Positions 33,773 to 43,107 of a stretch of DNA of 64,000 nucleotides are shown one piece after another. The notes beneath the pieces were generated by a model, which was not told the origin of the DNA, did not search any database, and saw nothing but the letters and a program-made list of their open reading frames with translations. This stretch comes from Minisyncoccota bacterium (lineage in GTDB: Bacteria; Patescibacteriota; Minisyncoccia; Phycocordibacterales; UBA9973), in the NCBI GenBank assembly GCA_041663005.1, contig JBAZRK010000001.1:93360-157359 (forward strand). The letters run 5' to 3'. The stretch's first letter is position 1. The number at the start of each line of letters is the position of its first letter. Made by a program: the position numbers and the translations under genes.

Positions 33773-33805
33773 TTTAAGCTTAAAAATGTTATGATATTTT
33801 CCATT

Positions 33806-33877
33806 GGCCCTATCGTCTAACGGTTAGGACATCGGCTTTTCAAGCCGGTAATCCGGGTTCGATTCCCGGTAGGGTCA
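33806..33877 (+). tRNA. tRNA-Glu (anticodon TTC)
   Basis: Acceptor GGCCCTA/TAGGGTC, anticodon stem TCGGC/GCCGG with loop TTTTCAA, T-arm CCGGG-TTCGATT-CCCGG. Confidence 0.85.
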
Positions 33878-35528
33878 CAGACAAGGATTTTTTATCCTGA
33901 AATTCGTCATATAGCTTGTAAGGTATAGATAGTTTTGGTGTTCCATTAAGTAATTCAGTATATGTTGGCAACTCATCAAAAACCAACCCATAAAATGCTC
34001 TTAAAAGAGTAAGATTCTTTTGTTTTATAAGGTATTCTTCTGGGTGTGCCATTAAGTTTTTTACATATCCTACAAAAGAGTGGACATCGTTCTCCTGAAC
34101 CTCAATTCCGTTTCTTTGCTCTCTGGTTTCTTCTATGCGTTGATGAAGTTTATTAATCTCTTTTTCAAGTTCTGCTCGTATAATTTCATTTGTTGTAGAA
34201 GTAAACGCATTAATCTTTTGTGTTTTCTCAAAATCAAGTTCTGCTACAGTTGTTCCCACTTTAACAGAAAACTCACCAAGTTCTTTTTCTTTCTCTCTAA
34301 ATTTATTTATCAGTGTTGCTTCAAGGGCTTTCAAAAAGCTTTTGTCTACGTGCTTTAATTTTTCTATGCAGACAGCAAGACCATCTTCAAATTCTTTCTT
34401 TGAAACTCTATATTGCTTGTGATTCCTAGCACAATGATATGCTGGAAAACTCTTGCCAGATTTACCAGTAGATGCACTACCTAAAAATGGTTTTTGACAT
34501 TCAGGGCACAACACAACTTCTTTAAAAGGATATAGGGGATTATCTTTCATTCGTTTTAACTGATGTGGGTTATAATCTTTATGTATCAAAATAGTTCCAT
34601 CCTTTTTCTCTTCAATAAAAAAATTGCCTTTATTTGCTCTGTTGTATTCGTCTATGCTCACCAACCCCTTGTAGTTAGTCCTAATAGGCGTTTTTAGCCA
34701 CTTTTCAGTATTAATTCCTGCATAGATGGGTCTTTGTATTATTTTCTGTAATTGCTTCACTGTAAGCTTTACACCGCCTCTCGAACCCAATATTTTATCT
34801 TTTGACCTTGACCACCTGTTTTGTTTCTTCGAACGATATCCAATAGCATTTATGTGGTCAACAATCTGCTGGTCTGTGTAAATGCCCGAAGCTCTCATTT
34901 CAAACATAGTAATAAAAAAGTGGGCTCGTTTAGGGTCTGAAACTTGAATCATTTTTTTCTTACCCTCAACGTAAATTCTTTCATTTACGAAACCATCATT
35001 TTCTTGCCTAACTTTATACCCTTCTCTTACTAAAGTTGCTTCTGCTCCAATCATTCTAGTAAGAATTTGATTAACTTCAATTTTACCTTGTTGAGCCATA
35101 ACAAGTTCTGTAATTTCACTAGGGCGTGTGATACTCCAGTCATATTCGAGACCAAGGTGTTCAAGAGTATTTTTTGTGGGCTGTATGATACCGTTAGAAT
35201 CAATTAATTGAACACCGTAATCAGCTAGTCGCTTTTTTAGACTTTCATACCCAAGAGTTCCATTTCTTGTAAAACGGTCTATGGAACGAAATATAATAAC
35301 ATCAACTTTTTTGGGAGACTTTTTTATAAAAGAAATAATGTCTTCAATAACAGGTCTGTCGTCTTTTCTACCAGAAAGTTGTTCCTTGAATGTTTTTAAA
35401 ACATCGAGTTTAAATTTTTCAGCAACACCGAGACAGATTTTTTCTTGCACTTCAAGACTTTCACCTTCTTGGGCTTGCTTTGCGGAACTAACTCGGCAAT
35501 AAATAATACAATTCTTATTTTCTTTCAT
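33840..35528 (-). CDS. large serine recombinase (resolvase/invertase catalytic domain plus recombinase domain plus zinc-ribbon/coiled-coil)
   Basis: N-terminal CIIYCRVSSAKQ contains the catalytic Ser motif. DRFTRN is present. 562 aa with C-terminal CPEC...C...HC. The last 38 nt are antisense to the tRNA-Glu 3' half. Confidence 0.85.
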   Translation of the reverse strand: MKENKNCIIYCRVSSAKQAQEGESLEVQEKICLGVAEKFKLDVLKTFKEQLSGRKDDRPVIEDIISFIKKSPKKVDVIIFRSIDRFTRNGTLGYESLKKRLADYGVQLIDSNGIIQPTKNTLEHLGLEYDWSITRPSEITELVMAQQGKIEVNQILTRMIGAEATLVREGYKVRQENDGFVNERIYVEGKKKMIQVSDPKRAHFFITMFEMRASGIYTDQQIVDHINAIGYRSKKQNRWSRSKDKILGSRGGVKLTVKQLQKIIQRPIYAGINTEKWLKTPIRTNYKGLVSIDEYNRANKGNFFIEEKKDGTILIHKDYNPHQLKRMKDNPLYPFKEVVLCPECQKPFLGSASTGKSGKSFPAYHCARNHKQYRVSKKEFEDGLAVCIEKLKHVDKSFLKALEATLINKFREKEKELGEFSVKVGTTVAELDFEKTQKINAFTSTTNEIIRAELEKEINKLHQRIEETREQRNGIEVQENDVHSFVGYVKNLMAHPEEYLIKQKNLTLLRAFYGLVFDELPTYTELLNGTPKLSIPYKLYDEFQDKKSLSVTLPGIEPGLPA

Positions 35529-35814
35529 ATACCAATTTATTGTTGAATGGGCTAATTATAACATTTTTTTCCTCAATTTTTTCACGCCACATAACATAAA
35601 ATGCTTCAGCTAAATCATCTTGTATTTGTCTAGCTTTAATAATCTCTTCTTCTGATAAACCAATATCATCTACATCTCCTAATGCTTTTTTATATTCTTC
35701 AAGTCCTATCATCCAATACTTTATTCTAATAAAAACCTTGCAAATAAGCTTCAGCTCTATTGTTAAAATTAATAAAAAAACCTTTTCCAGAAGAAAAAGA
35801 TTTACGACAAGCAT
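35515..35814 (-). CDS. small hypothetical protein upstream of the recombinase, overlapping it by 14 nt (possible regulator or directionality factor)
   Basis: The ORF overlaps the recombinase start. The acidic product has no recognisable HTH. Confidence 0.3.
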   Translation of the reverse strand: MLVVNLFLLEKVFLLILTIELKLICKVFIRIKYWMIGLEEYKKALGDVDDIGLSEEEIIKARQIQDDLAEAFYVMWREKIEEKNVIISPFNNKLVYERK

Positions 35815-35959
35815 CCTTCCCTTTAGGGGTTTTGGCTAGCACCGTTGCCACTCGACTGGCTGGTTGCTGGGCGGATTAACGAGCCAAAACTCTACCGCCT
35901 CTCCTGATACTGATATTTAATTTTACTTACCTAATAAGGATAGCACGGTTCTAAAACTG

Positions 35960-36165
35960 ACCCTGTAAAACTGTGGACAACTTTTTTAAGCTATATAATA
36001 CAAGGTTCTCAAAGAGTCGGAAAATTACCCCTATGAGTGCAAAAACCCCTAAGGATATATGCCCGCTAAAGAGTGCGAAAAGTCCTTTCCTCCTACTATC
36101 GTAGTTGTCTATAAACTCCTTCAAAGAGTGTAAAAACTCCCTCCCAAGGCGTGTAAAAACTCCAA
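35960..36165. repeat. iteron-like direct repeat array (consensus GAGTGYRAAAASYCC, plus two TAAAACTG units)
   Basis: Copies at about 36014, 36035, 36071, 36126 and 36149, with TAAAACTG at 35966 and 35981. Spacings are irregular (21-55 nt). Confidence 0.5.
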
Positions 36166-36649
36166 ATTTGCCTTTTAACGGTGATTTGTTATAAACTCTA
36201 CTTACAACTGAATAGTGAGCGTATCCAGAGCGAGGCGAGAGATTGGACTCAATGACCCTCCAACAACCTACCCAAAGGGCAAGGTGCTATCCACCAAGAT
36301 GACAGAAATGTTGTCGGGAAAGATGCAAAGGTCGAACATTTTTCCTCATTATTAGAGGAAATTTTTATTTTATGGAAGTAGTTAAATTAAGTATTAGACT
36401 TGGTCGTGATTCTTTCCAATATAATTCGGAAGTTCTTAGAAAGAATGGAAAATTTTACTATCGTGCAAATGGTGCAATCATAAAAATAACACCAATTGAG
36501 GCAAGATGTGTTATAAGAAACCCACGTCTTTACTATTTCTCTATTGCCTTGAAACTACACTTATTGATTAACAAAAAGCTTAAATCTTGATAGTATTAGC
36601 TTACAAGTAAATAAGAGACCTAACTCTTAAAGATTTTCTTTAAGATATG

Positions 36650-36795
36650 GTCGAAAGACCCATAGAAGATACTGAACCCCACGTGTTCAGCAACCTTCTA
36701 TGGGCTATACAGGGAAACTTGTATAGGGTCGCAAGACCTAGCTGGCGTGGGGTTCTGTGTTTATACCACGCTAGCTATTATCAGCTAGCTTTTTA
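36650..36795 (+). ncRNA. candidate structured RNA or cis-regulatory leader (uncharacterised)
   Basis: Nested perfect helices: CCCATAGAAG/CTTCTATGGG, CTGAAC/GTTCAG, CTATACA/TGTATAG, GNRA-capped GGTC-GAAA-GACC and GGTC-GCAA-GACC. A long-range 10-bp pairing GAACCCCACG/CGTGGGGTTC suggests a pseudoknot. Confidence 0.3.
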
Positions 36796-36799
36796 TTTT

Positions 36800-37033
36800 A
36801 TGAAAAAAGAAACAATAATGAGTCAGGTAATAATACTAGTTTTGGGGCTTACTTTAATTTTTATTCTGAGAGAGTTTCTAACAGATAAAATTATAGTGGA
36901 AGCTATGAGAGTTCAAGTAGAAACAATGGCAAGTAGAGCTGGATGTTTTGCTAACGCAAGAGAAAAAAATATTAATGATGGCGATTGCACGAGCATAGAT
37001 ATAACTGCTTACAAACTTTATCCTAAATATTAA
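36800..37033 (+). CDS. small membrane protein (77 aa)
   Basis: Start reassigned to MKKETIM. One TM helix (VIILVLGLTLIFIL). Sits immediately downstream of the structured region. Confidence 0.4.
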   Translation: MKKETIMSQVIILVLGLTLIFILREFLTDKIIVEAMRVQVETMASRAGCFANAREKNINDGDCTSIDITAYKLYPKY

Positions 37034-37043
37034 TTATAAATTT

Positions 37044-37688
37044 ATGAAAAAACATCTCACAATTTTGTTTCTCACAGTATTAATAATACCTTCTATCGCT
37101 TCTGCAACTTGGTGGAATCCACTTAGCTGGTCAAAAAATTCCAAGCAAATAGATACCATTGAACCAACATCAACTAAGCCAGTTGAAAAATCTATTCCTG
37201 TATCTGAAACTAAAACCACTGAATCAAAAGTTGTTGAAAGAATAGTAGAAAAACCAACAATCCAAACAATAACCGTGCAAGACCCCGCACTTCAAGCGAG
37301 GGTAAATATTCTTGTGGCGGAAAATGAATCTTTAAAAGCCCAAGTTGGTAGACTCCTTGAATCCAACAAATCACTCAATAAAGAATTATTGGCTTGTGAA
37401 GATACCCCAGCATCTACTTTTTCTGCTGATGACCAATGTGAGTATGCCCAAGATTCTCTAAAAGATTTTCTTGAACAGTATACCGAGTTAAGTGCTGAAA
37501 TAAGTAAGGAGCGAGAGAAAATAAAGAAAAACCCTGAAAGTGCCGAGAAACCTTACATAGATATTTATCATCGTTCTGGATTGAATGCTATGCTCAGTAG
37601 TTTCAATATTTCATCAAGTCAAAAACTCAAACCCCTTATTAAGGGAAAGGAATCTGCTGAATCAGCAGTAGCACTCTATTGCAACTAA
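37044..37688 (+). CDS. secreted coiled-coil protein of unknown function
   Basis: Signal peptide MKKHLTILFLTVLIIPSIASA, then a T/K/E-rich linker, then a coiled coil (LVAENESLKAQVGRLLESNKSLNKELL). Confidence 0.55.
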   Translation: MKKHLTILFLTVLIIPSIASATWWNPLSWSKNSKQIDTIEPTSTKPVEKSIPVSETKTTESKVVERIVEKPTIQTITVQDPALQARVNILVAENESLKAQVGRLLESNKSLNKELLACEDTPASTFSADDQCEYAQDSLKDFLEQYTELSAEISKEREKIKKNPESAEKPYIDIYHRSGLNAMLSSFNISSSQKLKPLIKGKESAESAVALYCN

Positions 37689-37869
37689 AGACCTAGAACT
37701 CTCTTCCTGTGGCATCGTAGAGCTTCCAGAACCTTGTCAGAATCTTGCCATCCGTTTTTTAAAGTATCCTAATTTTCAACGTTTTGGTTTTTGAGGACTG
37801 ATAAGGTAGTGTTAATAGTAAAGTGTCGGAAAATTCTCGTAAACCGTGTAGAAGTATTATACTTAAGTA

Positions 37870-39471
37870 ATGTTTAAAAACGAGAAAGGAGAAACAACTC
37901 TTCATATTGATACAAGGCTTGGAGAACTTACCACAGGTGAACCAAACGTGAACGAAGAAAAACTCAAGCAAGCTTTAAAGGCATACAATTTAAAAGAAGC
38001 CCTTTTAACTTTGTCTGAACTATCAAAAAACATTTTCAACGAAAACATTCCTGAACCATTTCAAAAGATGGGGAAAACTGGGATGCGTCATCCCGCAGGT
38101 TTAATTATTGCACAATTTGCTATTGAATATTTAGCTAGTGTTTTTATTATTTCAGGAGCTAACGATTATAAAAAAGAGAGCGTAAAAACAAAAGACAACA
38201 TATTGGGTCTTTTTAATATATATAATAATTCTCTTATACAACCTGTTTTTTTAGGCAATCATTTATCAACTTTACTTATACCGATGTATTTTGTTCAACT
38301 TAGAAGCCAATTTAGCCCCCAAGACCTTTTCACTAGGCAATGGATGATTTTTAGTGAAATGAGAAAAAAGACTAATAATATTTTTGAAGATATAAACAAA
38401 ATTATTTTTGACAACACAAATCTTACCATTGAAGAAATATCAGGGATTTCTTTTTCAATTTTTGCTTACTTAATACAAAATCCACTATTTAATATAGGAA
38501 ACTTAGAAGGACATACGGTTGAAAGCTTTAAAAATCTTTTAACTAAAGAAAAAATTGATTCATTTTTAAACTTATATACAGCTACTTATTCACAAATTCG
38601 TGAGTTAGACCAAAAGTTAAATCCGATAGACCTTAAAGAATATACAAAAGCCCGATTTAACCCCTTATGGAAAAAGCCAATAATAAAATTAGATGAAAAT
38701 TTATTTTTAGCACCTAGTTTAACAGCTTACACAACCGCAAGCTTTTATGGATTATTCTGGTGGTTTGACGATTACTATCGAGAGCAATCACAGAAGAAGC
38801 AAATGGATTTTAGGAAATATTTTGGAATTTTATTTGAAAATTACGCTGGAGAAGTTCTTTCAGATTTGTATGGAGAAAGTTCACTCAGAAAACAAATAAA
38901 GTATGGATTAAAGGGTAAAAAAATTGATTTTACAGATTGGGTAGTAATTAAAAACGATAAAGCGTATCTTTTTGAAGTTAAGGCATATCAATTTCCTCTA
39001 GAGGTTCTTCAAAAAGGAAAATCTGATGATGTTAGGAAACAGGTAATAAAAAAAATTGTTGAATCAATAAAACAGATATATCAAAGGTCTCAAGACATAC
39101 CTAAGCACAAGGAACTATCAGAGTTCAATAAAAAAGTAATAATCCCAATTGTGGTTTTTTATGATTTGCCTTTTATCTCTACTTCTCCTTCTTTGTATAA
39201 AGACGATATACTCAAAGCTCTTAACGGTTTAGATTCTAAATATAATGGGATTAAAGATTTTAAATATTACCTAATGAATATTGATGAATTGGAAGATTTT
39301 TATTATTGCTCTGATAATATTGAGATAGAGGATATCTTTGAGAATATTAAAGATAACCCAGCCAAAGGGGTTAATTCTGAAATTATTATCCATATAAAAG
39401 ACAAGAGTCGAAAGAATTTTCTCGATAGACAATTTAATAAATATTTAGATGACTTAGTGCCTGAATTATAA
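37870..39471 (+). CDS. hypothetical protein with a C-terminal PD-(D/E)xK-like nuclease motif (operon gene A)
   Basis: 533 aa. KKIDFTDWVVIKNDKAYLFEVKAY matches a D...(D/E)xK arrangement. No other domain recognised. Confidence 0.55.
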   Translation: MFKNEKGETTLHIDTRLGELTTGEPNVNEEKLKQALKAYNLKEALLTLSELSKNIFNENIPEPFQKMGKTGMRHPAGLIIAQFAIEYLASVFIISGANDYKKESVKTKDNILGLFNIYNNSLIQPVFLGNHLSTLLIPMYFVQLRSQFSPQDLFTRQWMIFSEMRKKTNNIFEDINKIIFDNTNLTIEEISGISFSIFAYLIQNPLFNIGNLEGHTVESFKNLLTKEKIDSFLNLYTATYSQIRELDQKLNPIDLKEYTKARFNPLWKKPIIKLDENLFLAPSLTAYTTASFYGLFWWFDDYYREQSQKKQMDFRKYFGILFENYAGEVLSDLYGESSLRKQIKYGLKGKKIDFTDWVVIKNDKAYLFEVKAYQFPLEVLQKGKSDDVRKQVIKKIVESIKQIYQRSQDIPKHKELSEFNKKVIIPIVVFYDLPFISTSPSLYKDDILKALNGLDSKYNGIKDFKYYLMNIDELEDFYYCSDNIEIEDIFENIKDNPAKGVNSEIIIHIKDKSRKNFLDRQFNKYLDDLVPEL

Positions 39472-39479
39472 TAATTTAT

Positions 39480-40628
39480 ATGAATATTAGCGAAATAATG
39501 AAAAGTGCTCCCAGATATCTTGCGATGCGGTATGGCTCATTGTATACCTATGTTTGGCAAAGTTTATTTCCCAAGGAATATATAAACAAAGTTCTTTACA
39601 GAATTGACAACCCAAAAGAAAAAAAGGAAAAGTTTTTCCGAATGAAAACAATAGCAGAGGAGGCATCTGTGTTAGTTTTCCTTTTCTATACCAAAAAAAT
39701 GTTAATTGAAGGGGCTAATGCCACAAAGAACACGGTTGATATCCTAAAGGAACTAGATATTAAAGAATTTCGCTTGGGGAAAACAAGGTTTGCTGGAAGA
39801 AACAATAACGTCATATTGGGAGATAGGCTTGCGGAAAGACTTCTACGTTTACTTGATGATGATGTAAAAAGACTTCTTTCAAGAACTGAATATATGTCTC
39901 AAATTATTGACCACTACAGAAGGTTAAGAAACGAGGAACGCACATATAATTATTTATTCGACAAAAAAGAAGCGGAAGTAAAATTAAAAAGATTTTTTGC
40001 AAATGAAAAACCACGCCTACGGACTTTCGGAAATGTTGTAAATCAAGTGTTTGAAGCCTACACTTTTGCCTCTACCATAAAATGGTATCAAAGTAATGAG
40101 TGGTTAGTTCACATAATTAATCCAAAAGTAAAAAGCAAGGGTATTTTTCGGTTGAAATTTTCAACTATGGGTGCACCAAATAAATACAGTTATGCAATAT
40201 GTGAAAAAGGAGAAAAAAAATGCCAAATAAGACACCAGTTAAGAGTAACTACAGAATCCTATCGAGATAAGAATAACTATAGAGCTAATATATGCTGTGA
40301 TATTTCGGTCATAAATAATTTAGATTTGAACCTTTATTCAACTGCTATGGCTATCCCAAACAAGGAATTGATTTCATTTGGTGAAGTTAAACATATGTCT
40401 GCTTTTGCGGAGCTTTTAGCGAACTTTGTTGGATTAGTTCACGAACTACAACCACGTAGATTAAGAACAATTAGAACCAGAAGATGGGCGAGAAATGAAC
40501 ATATTTCACCATTTCTAAACGTCAGTGGGTTTTTGCAACCTACTGCAAAAGGCTTGAATGAAACAATTGAAAAGAGAAAATATGACATTGATGTATACCA
40601 TTATGAAAATAAAATGGTAAATATCTGA
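39480..40628 (+). CDS. hypothetical protein (operon gene B)
   Basis: 382 aa, starting 8 nt after gene A. No recognisable motif. Confidence 0.5.
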   Translation: MNISEIMKSAPRYLAMRYGSLYTYVWQSLFPKEYINKVLYRIDNPKEKKEKFFRMKTIAEEASVLVFLFYTKKMLIEGANATKNTVDILKELDIKEFRLGKTRFAGRNNNVILGDRLAERLLRLLDDDVKRLLSRTEYMSQIIDHYRRLRNEERTYNYLFDKKEAEVKLKRFFANEKPRLRTFGNVVNQVFEAYTFASTIKWYQSNEWLVHIINPKVKSKGIFRLKFSTMGAPNKYSYAICEKGEKKCQIRHQLRVTTESYRDKNNYRANICCDISVINNLDLNLYSTAMAIPNKELISFGEVKHMSAFAELLANFVGLVHELQPRRLRTIRTRRWARNEHISPFLNVSGFLQPTAKGLNETIEKRKYDIDVYHYENKMVNI

Positions 40629-40679
40629 AAGAAATTAAATATATGTTAAAATAGGATAATTTCTAAAAAACAAATTAAA

Positions 40680-41642
40680 ATGATAAAAATTACACTTGAT
40701 ACAAATTGCGTTATAAACCTACTTAACTTTAATGCTGAAACACCTACTTCTGTAGATGAACTTTCCGAAATTATAAAATATGGGCTTGATAGTAATGCTA
40801 ATATCGCTATTACAACCAGAGTTGAAAGCGAATGTGAAGGAGACAAAAATAAAGAACGCAGTAAGGAAATGATACGTAAGATACAAATGTTGCCTGTAAT
40901 TGGCACAGTTGCACGTTGGAATACCTCAAAATGGGATGGCGGTGATGTTTGGGGAGGTCAGGAACACGAAAAGTTGTCTGATGAACTTACAAAAATAATT
41001 TTTCCAGCTCTAAAAAAAGAAGATGCTCACTATAAAAATAAGATAAATGATATTGACCATCTCGTAGGGCACATTATTAATAAAAGAGACATATTTGTAA
41101 CCGATGATGCACAGATTCTTAAAAAATCTGAGACACTTAAAGCAAGTCTCAATTTAACAGTGATGAGTCCAAAACAAGCCCTAGAGTATCTAAATTCTAG
41201 AGGTGATAAAACAATCCTAGTCCAAGATTTTTATGATAAGTTTCTAGAACAGAAAAAATTAATCTTAAAATTTCTCACATCTGAAAAAGATTTGGAACTG
41301 CTCGATAAGTATGAAGAAAATCGTCAATGGTTAATCCGTAAATACCCCAACATTAAAGATGGATTGGGAGATTTTAAAGTGCAACAGATGTCAGTTCCAA
41401 TGGGCGGACAAAGAGCCTTTACTCAAATTGATATTGTTTCTTTGCAGTTCTTTAATAAAAAACTAAATGCCTTGTTGGTGGAAAGAAATCCTCTGAATAT
41501 TCCAGATATTATATCTAATAATCCCGATAGCTACGCTGTCGTTTATTTAAGTGAAGAAGAGAAACTAGGTAAAACCATCAGTTTCTTAAATAAAATAGAG
41601 GATTTACTACTTGGATACTTAGGAAAATTAGAAGGAAAATAA
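40680..41642 (+). CDS. PIN-domain protein with a roughly 150-aa C-terminal extension (operon gene C)
   Basis: N-terminal IKITLDTNCVINLL contains the first PIN Asp. RDIFVTDDAQIL matches the fourth acidic motif. Confidence 0.6.
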   Translation: MIKITLDTNCVINLLNFNAETPTSVDELSEIIKYGLDSNANIAITTRVESECEGDKNKERSKEMIRKIQMLPVIGTVARWNTSKWDGGDVWGGQEHEKLSDELTKIIFPALKKEDAHYKNKINDIDHLVGHIINKRDIFVTDDAQILKKSETLKASLNLTVMSPKQALEYLNSRGDKTILVQDFYDKFLEQKKLILKFLTSEKDLELLDKYEENRQWLIRKYPNIKDGLGDFKVQQMSVPMGGQRAFTQIDIVSLQFFNKKLNALLVERNPLNIPDIISNNPDSYAVVYLSEEEKLGKTISFLNKIEDLLLGYLGKLEGK

Positions 41643-42271
41643 TGACCTCAATTAAAGTCTTAAAGAAAAGGTTCGAAGAAGTTACCAATGCTGTCTCTCG
41701 GTTGGTTGATGATAGATATTTTTTCCTTGAATATAAGAAATACCTCGAAGAACACCCGAATATTGATAAAAATAACGAATTTTTATATTTTATAGGTTTA
41801 AATTATGTAGAAACCACTTGTTTGGGGATATTCCGTCAGGTTGACCGCAATCCAAAATCTCAAAGCCTATTAAACATACTAAAGACTATACAAAAAGAAC
41901 ACGAATCTTTTACTCTTGGATTCTTTTGTAGAAAATACAGAAGAAGTAATGCAGGCTTAGGTAATGGAATAAAAGATTTTTCTCAGTTTGCTCTTAAAGA
42001 TGGTAAAAAAATAAGTCCTAAAAAAGTTAAATCCGATATATTGGCTCTTATAAAAATAACCAAACCCATTGTTAAATATAGACACAAATTTGTAGCTCAC
42101 AGAAATATAAGGAAGGTCACAATAAACGTGAAAATGAATGACTTATACACGGTAATTGATTTTTTAGAGAAAATGGTGAGTAAATATCAGCTCCTTATCA
42201 ATCAAGCAGGAATGCCTTCGTTACGTGCAGGAAATTCGCATCCTAATCTGCAAGCCGTCTTTAAAGAATAA
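41642..42271 (+). CDS. putative HEPN-like protein (operon gene D)
   Basis: TAATG overlap with gene C. YRHKFVAHRN contains an R-x5-H match. The assignment is tentative. Confidence 0.45.
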   Translation: MTSIKVLKKRFEEVTNAVSRLVDDRYFFLEYKKYLEEHPNIDKNNEFLYFIGLNYVETTCLGIFRQVDRNPKSQSLLNILKTIQKEHESFTLGFFCRKYRRSNAGLGNGIKDFSQFALKDGKKISPKKVKSDILALIKITKPIVKYRHKFVAHRNIRKVTINVKMNDLYTVIDFLEKMVSKYQLLINQAGMPSLRAGNSHPNLQAVFKE

Positions 42272-42275
42272 TTGT

Positions 42276-42788
42276 ATGAAAACTTCCGCACCTATTTCTA
42301 AAAGTCAAAATTCAGAAAGTATATTTTTTCAAAATATACTTCATTTTCTTTTATCTACTCACATAATACCGCTAAGAGAATATTCTTTGCAGTATGTTCC
42401 AAAAAATCAAGCAAAAATCGTAACTCTAAAAACGAGTTTTGGAGAAGATATATCTACTTATCTTGAAGAATTACCAACACCTTCAGACAAAGATTTTAAT
42501 CAAATTTCAGCCCGTATTTTAATTAATGGATGTTATGAAATCTTTAAAGAAAGTTCTATAAAAGAAATAACTTCTTCTGAAGTGGTTGAATTTTTTCGAC
42601 ATATACGAAACGCATCATCACATAAAGGTAAATTTATATTTAAAAAAGACGAGCCAAGGAAAAAAGCGAAATGGCGAGAGCTGGAGATTACTAGAGACTT
42701 AAACGGCTCTGACCTATTTGATTTTATAGCTATTGGCGATGTCATATTACTTTTACAAGATATTGATGATTGGGAAATCATAAAGTAA
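42276..42788 (+). CDS. HEPN-domain protein with canonical RNxxxH motif (operon gene E)
   Basis: Start reassigned to MKTSAP, 4 nt after gene D. FFRHIRNASSHKG carries R-N-x3-H near the C-terminus. Confidence 0.55.
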   Translation: MKTSAPISKSQNSESIFFQNILHFLLSTHIIPLREYSLQYVPKNQAKIVTLKTSFGEDISTYLEELPTPSDKDFNQISARILINGCYEIFKESSIKEITSSEVVEFFRHIRNASSHKGKFIFKKDEPRKKAKWRELEITRDLNGSDLFDFIAIGDVILLLQDIDDWEIIK

Positions 42789-42974
42789 AACTTTTGACTC
42801 TAGTTCTATAACTGATTGGGTAATTATTCAAATTGCTTTTACGCCATAAAACCTTTATAATAAAGGAGCTTTGAAACATTTAGGAAACAAGTTCAATGTG
42901 AGCGAAAACATTATTCCAAGTAATAATCATATTTTCAATGGAGTTCCATTGCAGATATGGTGAGCTCACTGCGA

Positions 42975-43061
42975 GGAGGCGTGGCTGAGTGGTTGAAGGC
43001 ACCGGTTTCGAAAACCGGCATTGGGGAAACTCAATCGTGAGTTCAAATCTCACCGCCTCCG
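42975..43061 (+). tRNA. tRNA-Ser (anticodon CGA)
   Basis: Acceptor GGAGGCG/CGCCTCC, anticodon stem CCGGT/ACCGG with loop TTCGAAA, long variable arm, T-arm GTGAG-TTCAAAT-CTCAC, discriminator G. Confidence 0.85.
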
Positions 43062-43107
43062 CAAAATATCTCATTACATATGTAAGGAGACGTGTAAGGA
43101 GATAAAA

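Follow-up and report, generated by a model that had tools for sequence, protein, structure and literature searches.

Do tightly packed nuclease genes on a mobile island form one machine, or several that share a location? The question is raised by five genes, here called A–E, of a Minisyncoccota bacterium (contig JBAZRK010000001.1), which lie within the stretch of 64,000 nucleotides that was analysed (positions 93,360–157,359 of the forward strand; hereafter the window). The original prediction, made from the letters of the DNA, saw in them an operon of abortive-infection, toxin–antitoxin or antiphage type, and possibly a single novel system. The nuclease families, the defence-type neighbours of their relatives and the recombinase-bearing island are consistent with the first part of that claim, but the five genes do not behave as one system: A–E are probably a mosaic defence island of autonomous nuclease cassettes. 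We infer the nuclease activities, triggers, defence phenotype and co-transcription that this reading includes, the defence function being deduced from homology and neighbourhood.

Gene packing and homology breakpoints

As originally described, the genes are co-directional and packed (Table 1), with A and B separated by 8 nt, B and C by 51 nt and D and E by 4 nt, and with C and D overlapping by 1 nt (TAATG), all read from the sequence. Homologues of all five open reading frames (ORFs) exist elsewhere, so these are real genes; the mechanical ORF of E begins at a GTG at 42225, ahead of its ATG. No terminator-like site was found between the genes; this and the shortness of the gaps make co-transcription plausible, and A–E are probably co-transcribed. 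A promoter scan returned the level of shuffled sequence (33 sites versus 31.5 in shuffles). For four of the five proteins (A–D), the nuclease assignment comes from a profile match or a predicted fold, with conserved catalytic residues.

Five co-directional genes for predicted nucleases, spaced very closely and not interrupted by terminator-like sites, would suit a novel five-component antiphage system. Neighbourhoods were fetched for relatives of A, B, C and E, and every locus (given below by its L number) was searched with all five proteins; D recurred only beside C, in L012. Apart from the identical copies in L001 and L002, no contig carries the five genes together, and elsewhere at most C and D co-occur, once. 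(A second contig, 6.3 kb long and from another sample, carries identical copies of A–E.) In L012 the slot of A and B is filled by an unrelated OLD/AriA/AbiL-like ATPase and E is missing, homology blocks stop at gene borders, and the GAPS1 relatives of A act as single proteins. A single five-gene system is thus largely refuted by the lack of synteny, and we consider it highly improbable.

A, B, C and E each have relatives in surroundings of their own. Homologues of B occur in four independent contexts (L003, L004–L009, L010/L011 and L056), none of them near A, C, D or E: one (70% identity, L003) adjoins copper-resistance genes, those of L004–L009 share an island with McrBC, two methyltransferases and IceA, that of L010 is flanked by housekeeping genes, and that of L056 (59%) comes after type III restriction–modification (R-M)-like genes, a SocA_Panacea gene and a 125-aa ORF. 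Full-length homologues of C occur in about 12 independent contexts (L012, L013/14, L015–19, L025–L032 and L055), where their neighbours include methyltransferase-like genes, CBASS, SecD, a helicase with a HARE-HTH protein, an ATPase and another PIN_12 protein; A, B or E is nearby in none of these contexts, and D in L012 alone. There, the D homologue (72% identity) has the same 1-nt overlap with C. The homologues of E lie in three contexts (L020/21, L022 and L023/24), none of which has A–D. Among relatives of A, that of L053/L054 (31% identity) lacks all of B–E nearby; that of L052 (66%) adjoins a recombinase 63% identical to that of the island and overlapping tRNA-Glu, on a contig that ends inside A.

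Nucleotide comparisons place the edges of homology at the edges of genes. The blastn block of L012 corresponds to window positions 40674–42270, that is, to C and D only (76% nucleotide identity); that of L055 to 40674–41643, that is, to C only, with unrelated ORFs after it; that of L020 to 42294–42969, comprising E and the spacer up to tRNA-Ser; and those of L052 to 33802–35702 and then to 37870 onward, from the ATG of A. As read from these alignments, such gene-border breakpoints are the signature of a putative cargo hotspot with interchangeable cassettes.

A and B were also tried as a pair, given their 8-nt gap, and the pairing was rejected, as no relative of B has A as a neighbour. We further considered that E belongs to the host's tRNA-Glu/tRNA-Ser hotspot, not to the island: in L023, 145 nt separate tRNA-Glu(ttc) from the E homologue that follows it, and no recombinase is adjacent; L020 keeps E and its downstream spacer behind a different upstream gene.

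Table 1 Positions of genes A–E, their predicted parts and the elements bounding the island (window coordinates)
Feature	Position	Strand	Length or residues	Assignment or remark
Gene A	37870..39471	+	533 aa	Distant GapS1/GAPS1-like single-protein nuclease (predicted)
PD-(D/E)xK core of A	38833..38982	+		E323 (FENYAGE), D356 (IDFTDW), E369-x-K371 (FEVK)
Gene B	39480..40628	+	382 aa	Fused two-part restriction-endonuclease-fold protein (predicted)
B, N-terminal half	39480..39935	+	aa 1–152	Separate 153–155-aa helical protein in most relatives
B, C-terminal half	39948..40628	+	aa 157–382	Restriction-endonuclease-fold nuclease (predicted)
Gene C	40680..41642	+	320 aa	PIN domain and C-terminal helical domain
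C, PIN (VapC-like) domain	40680..41189	+	aa 1–170	D7, E49, D124, D142/D143
C, C-terminal helical domain	41202..41642	+	aa 175–320	Long helices
Gene D	41642..42271	+	209 aa	HEPN_AbiU2-family protein
Gene E	42276..42788	+	170 aa from ATG	Small HEPN-like protein (likely)
tRNA-Glu(ttc)	33806..33878	+		ARAGORN; Rfam tRNA, 65.5 bits; left edge of AT-rich island
Large serine recombinase	33840..35528	-	562 aa	Pfam, PHROG; presumed island integrase
tRNA-Ser(cga)	42975..43062	+		ARAGORN, Rfam; right edge of AT-rich interval

Nuclease families of the five proteins

Gene A matches the NCBIfam family antiphage_GapS1 (NF047931; E=1.4e-17, 63.7 bits), with its residues 138–498 aligned to positions 92–443 of the 455-position profile; the same profile is matched by 53 of the 61 aligned homologues of A (best E 3.2e-32). 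An exhaustive HMMER search found 455 representative clusters related to A at E<=1e-3, mostly 470–590 aa in size. The PD-(D/E)xK core that had been proposed from the motifs IDFTD (aa 352–356) and FEVK (aa 368–371) holds, with a spacer of 11 residues in place of the 15 first given: in the alignment of homologues D356 is conserved in 61/61 sequences, E369 in 57/61, K371 in 54/61 and E323 in 46/61. Judged by profile and motif, A is predicted to belong to a sister family of GapS1 and to have kept the PD-(D/E)xK core intact. Its residues 1–300, which are uncharacterised, presumably form the sensor. GAPS1 has been described as a single-protein system with a PD-(D/E)xK domain, found in a mobile island, that responds to a phage capsid protein by inducing dormancy (bioRxiv 10.1101/2023.03.28.534373). 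A tblastn search of plasmids with A gave four weak matches, annotated as hypothetical proteins or unannotated, and sequence-profile searches of the PDB with the alignments of A, B, C and E returned nothing meaningful.

Gene B, at first called unrecognisable, turned out to carry the clearest PD-(D/E)xK motif of the five proteins. In its C-terminal half, which has a predicted restriction-endonuclease fold, the motif consists of E192, D274 (NICCD) and E302-x-K304 (FGEVKHM), plus H252/R255, and the E...D...ExK pattern is invariant in the family. There are 198 homologues, with overall identities of 49–71% (120 listed of 198), in Patescibacteria (including Magasanikbacteria), Flavobacterium/Bacteroidota, Acidobacteriota, Verrucomicrobiota, Ignavibacteriales and others. 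Only four among the matches listed are full length; the other homologues are about 190–270 aa long, mostly about 225 aa, and are 49–67% identical to residues 157–382 of B. Upstream of these short homologues, and abutting or overlapping them, is an ORF of 153–155 aa that is 33–45% identical to residues 1–152 of B (tblastn, L004–L011). As the upstream ORFs match the N-terminal half, B is a fusion of a two-gene module. An AlphaFold2 model of that half is mostly helical (predicted local distance difference test, pLDDT, mostly 59–91 in 10-residue blocks).

Library searches with B gave no match below E=0.03 in Pfam, NCBIfam or PADLOC, and nothing meaningful in PHROG; tblastn of plasmids with B gave nothing, and no cyclic-nucleotide sensor domain was detected in the protein. 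A cognate DNA methyltransferase is present neither in the island nor near the Flavobacterium microcysteis module (L010), and the methyltransferases near B homologues in L004 and L056 belong to other R-M units. Only tentatively do we propose that the B family, split (153–155 aa plus 226 aa) or fused, constitutes an undescribed defence family, and likewise the C–D cassette.

The PIN signature attributed to gene C is borne out: the motifs ITLDTNC (aa 4–10) and FVTDD (aa 139–143) are in place, and the PIN fold and the conserved acidic active-site residues are both present. An insert of about 50 residues lies within the PIN domain. The C-terminal helical domain presumably serves as a sensor or as an autoinhibitory module; some PIN relatives have another C-terminal domain, or an N-terminal extension. 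Residues 3–179 match positions 2–151 of 486 of the PADLOC candidate PDC-M11A (E=3.6e-7), so that only the PIN part aligns and not the full length. There is no VapB antitoxin upstream, where the preceding gene is B (382 aa) and the 51-nt gap holds no small ORF. A scan of viral contigs with the C alignment found no relatives, and tblastn with C gave one PIN-only match, hypothetical or unannotated. Elsewhere, in L032 (6978–8126), a 59%-identical C homologue is followed 17 nt on by a 382-aa PIN_12 protein (E=1e-12), placing two PINs in tandem. The two closest relatives of C adjoin a terminase small-subunit-like gene (Pfam GP3_package; L012 4408–4911 (-) and L055 123–545 (-)); this is a hint that C, alone or together with D, may also be carried by phages or satellite-like elements.

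Gene D matches Pfam HEPN_AbiU2 (PF18734) with E=1.1e-10 and 41.8 bits, above the gathering score of 26.8, over its residues 42–190 (profile 33–176 of 193). The motif YRHKFVAH noted at first is present at aa 146–153 (R147-x5-H153, nt 42080–42100), and both R147 and H153 are retained in the 72%-identical orthologue of L012, the one orthologue compared. AbiU2 is listed as an active Rx4-6H HEPN family from defence operons (PMC3710099). No AbiU1-like partner of D was detected, and neither the viral-contig scan nor tblastn of plasmids and phages with D found relatives.

Gene E has only eight homologues besides itself. Its motif FFRHIRNASSH (aa 106–116; R111-N-x3-H116, nt 42606–42623) contains the RNxxxH of the original prediction, and E105, R108, H109, R111, N112 and H116 are invariant in the nine sequences (EFFRHIRNASSH). 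In profile searches the recurring matches of the family are all to HEPN families and all weak, namely pEK499_p136 in 3/9 (0.018), LA2681 in 3/9 (0.054) and Swt1 in 1/9 (0.048), and one homologue has a precomputed weak match to PF18736. E is likely to be a HEPN protein, as its motif suggests.

The overlap between C and D raises the further possibility that these two, perhaps with E, form one obligate multi-nuclease system, made up of a PIN RNase and one or two HEPN RNases, whose members regulate or neutralise each other in the manner of a toxin and its antitoxin, A and B being independent. The TAATG overlap is present here and in L012; the 76%-identical L012 block has its borders at the start of C and the stop of D; in L055 the C homologue (74%) is followed, 3 nt on, by a different protein with a weak HEPN match (PF05168, E=0.0027); and the HEPN family Bxe_C0808 is recorded as 'in operon with AbiU2' (PMC3710099). 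Against this, C occurs at 47–62% identity in about ten independent contexts with no D-like or clear HEPN neighbour, so C is tolerated alone. Many C homologues are solitary and, as C is so in most genomes, it cannot depend on D for neutralisation. The L055 downstream proteins are not similar to D or E (BLASTP) and their HEPN match is under the gathering score; homologues of E never adjoin C or D, and homology breaks at the D/E junction. We therefore regard an obligate unit as rather doubtful. Translational coupling and the one co-inherited block nonetheless mean that C and D may cooperate, and the C–D cassette could be a two-RNase abortive-infection pair.

It is also conceivable that A–E are mainly addiction or toxin modules that stabilise the island, through post-segregational killing or conflict between elements, and are not antiphage genes. 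PIN and HEPN are classic toxin–antitoxin toxin domains (PMC3710099), the genes sit on a recombinase-bearing island, and one B homologue has a SocA_Panacea antitoxin-domain gene two genes upstream of it. However, no small antitoxin genes (VapB, MNT) lie beside C, D or E, the nearest families with a name, GapS1 and AbiU2, are of antiphage or abortive-infection type, and the neighbours of homologues are R-M systems, McrBC and CBASS, not toxin–antitoxin arrays. This alternative appears unlikely.

The preferred reading, a mosaic of autonomous defence cassettes, draws on defence-type relatives (the GapS1 family, AbiU2 and PDC-M11A) and neighbours (McrBC, R-M systems, CBASS and the OLD/AriA-like ATPase). 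Several points weigh against it. The word 'defence' itself is supplied by homology and neighbourhood, and PADLOC has no convincing model for A, B, D or E. The score of A, 63.7 bits, is far under the curated GapS1 cutoff of 320 bits; the HEPN assignment of E consists of a motif and sub-threshold profile matches, and hhalign found no relation between the E family and D. The tight spacing (8 nt, 1-nt overlap and 4 nt) and the C+D block of L012 would also fit a coupling of some neighbours. Finally, the sampling of contexts is limited, with one informative context of A and one of D outside the source population.

The AT-rich island and its other elements

Genes A–E would make up the cargo end of an AT-rich island, roughly 9 kb long, that has tRNA-Glu(ttc) on its left and tRNA-Ser(cga) on its right. 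Their placement in such an island beside a serine recombinase is confirmed: GC content is 0.29–0.33 in A–E and 0.329 over the whole interval 33879–42974, versus 0.441 and 0.451 in the flanks and 44–45% in the genome, and climbs to 0.47 beyond tRNA-Ser(cga). The recombinase matches Pfam Resolvase (1e-16), Recombinase (4e-5) and Zn_ribbon_recom as well as PHROG_95 integrase (7.7e-36), and the last codons of its gene overlap the 3′ half of tRNA-Glu. A search for attachment-site (att)-like direct repeats at the island ends found none, which is expected because the enzyme is a serine recombinase; as a result, the right boundary can only be placed somewhere from 42788 to 42975.

The same arrangement recurs in related contigs. 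The gene of the 63%-identical recombinase in L052 likewise overlaps, with its 3′ end, the 3′ half of tRNA-Glu (33840–33878 in the window; L052 441–513), and in L023 a different serine recombinase overlaps tRNA-Ser(cga) in the same manner. Together with that of the window, these overlaps suggest that Paceibacterota have a family of serine-integrase islands that target tRNA genes. A small ORF lies just upstream of the recombinase (35515–35814 (-)). It has a counterpart in L052 (2127–2351 (-)), with which it shares the motif EEYKK.LG...EEI.KA..IQD.LAE, and may encode a recombination directionality or accessory factor.

Between the recombinase and the cargo genes lie several RNA elements. Two full-length S-adenosylmethionine (SAM)-I riboswitch-like aptamers face outward, at 35808–35913 (-) and 36218–36312 (+); they score 41.3 and 37.8 bits, just under the Rfam gathering score of 44.4 (E 2.2e-7 and 2.3e-6, lower in a narrower scan). 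The first sits upstream of the small ORF and the recombinase, and the second is followed by a terminator-like hairpin (36341–36361) and a 72-aa ORF. SAM riboswitches before a recombinase on a mobile island would, if true, be unusual. Between the two SAM-like elements, a 19-nt direct repeat (CAAAGAGTGTAAAAACTCC) has four copies in 36009–36163; a related 16-mer (AAAGAGTCGGAAAATT / AAAGTGTCGGAAAATT) is present at 36011 and a second time some 35 nt ahead of the ATG of gene A (37820–37835). These repeats and 16-mers could be operator sites. Further on, a full-length LOOT RNA lies inside the island (36617–36739 (+); Rfam RF03000, 81 bits versus a gathering score of 46), and a terminator-like hairpin comes after it at 36770–36789. 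The RNA overlaps the 5′ part of the ORF 36647–37033, so the true start of that ORF is probably later, around 36803.

There are two other features of note. A 214-aa protein with a signal-peptide-like N terminus and a coiled coil is encoded at 37044–37688 (+), and a homologue (54% identity) heads the cargo region of L012 (288–875). Directly left of tRNA-Glu, the segment 29950–33750 has 54–56% GC, in a genome of 44% GC, and small ORFs without family matches; in L023 a cation ATPase takes the corresponding position. This segment may be a second foreign insertion.

Proposed mechanism and comparison with known systems

If the cassettes are autonomous, each of A, B and C would pair a nuclease effector with a presumed sensor or regulator of its own: the N-terminal 300 residues in A, the helical partner in B and the helical domain in C. 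By analogy with GAPS1, recognition of a phage component by the N-terminal region of A would activate the C-terminal PD-(D/E)xK nuclease, leading to growth arrest. In B, the helical half probably regulates or targets a restriction-endonuclease-fold DNase that has no cognate methyltransferase. C would be a VapC-type PIN RNase, presumably held inactive until triggered by its fused helical domain in place of VapB; D, an AbiU2-type HEPN RNase, would be translationally coupled to it. E would act as a small stand-alone HEPN-like RNase.

On this account a candidate phyla radiation (CPR; Paceibacterota) bacterium with a small genome stacks several nuclease-type immunity genes on an island of a tRNA-targeting serine recombinase, where they are reshuffled as single-gene cassettes with breakpoints at gene borders. 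The analysis offers as candidates a sister family of GAPS1, a widespread restriction-fold module without a methyltransferase, split or fused, and a family of PIN plus helical-domain proteins that is akin to a PADLOC candidate. One false lead can be dropped, as there is no five-component system to seek.

Compared with known systems, A resembles GapS1/GAPS1 of the Vibrio parahaemolyticus VPaI-6 GMT island in spanning most of the profile and in its C-terminal PD-(D/E)xK core, and the relatives of A are single polypeptides of similar length, about 470–590 aa; A is likewise carried as mobile-island cargo. It differs in scoring under the family cutoff and in its setting, a serine-recombinase island of a CPR host and not a GMT island. 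The C-terminal half of B has the predicted fold and the E...D...ExK pattern of BsoBI, NgoMIV, NucC and Can2; B differs in having no cognate methyltransferase, and its nuclease comes with a small helical partner, to which it is fused here. C shares the PIN fold with VapC toxins but has no VapB and carries a fused C-terminal helical domain of about 145 aa, and it is distinct from PDC-M11A, a protein of about 490 aa whose remainder is unlike C. D resembles AbiU2 of the Lactococcus AbiU abortive-infection locus, scoring above the Pfam gathering score and having the Rx4-6H motif, but it is coupled to a PIN protein, has no detected AbiU1-like partner and no PADLOC match.

As a whole, the island recalls GMT-type defence islands, in which unrelated defence-type genes lie co-directionally beside an integrase and the same slot holds different cargo in related elements. 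It departs from them in that a large serine recombinase presumably mobilises it, and the gene of this enzyme overlaps the 3′ end of tRNA-Glu. Its less common points are the Paceibacterota (CPR) host, the split or fused B family, which is unnamed in the libraries, and the possible PIN–HEPN pair.

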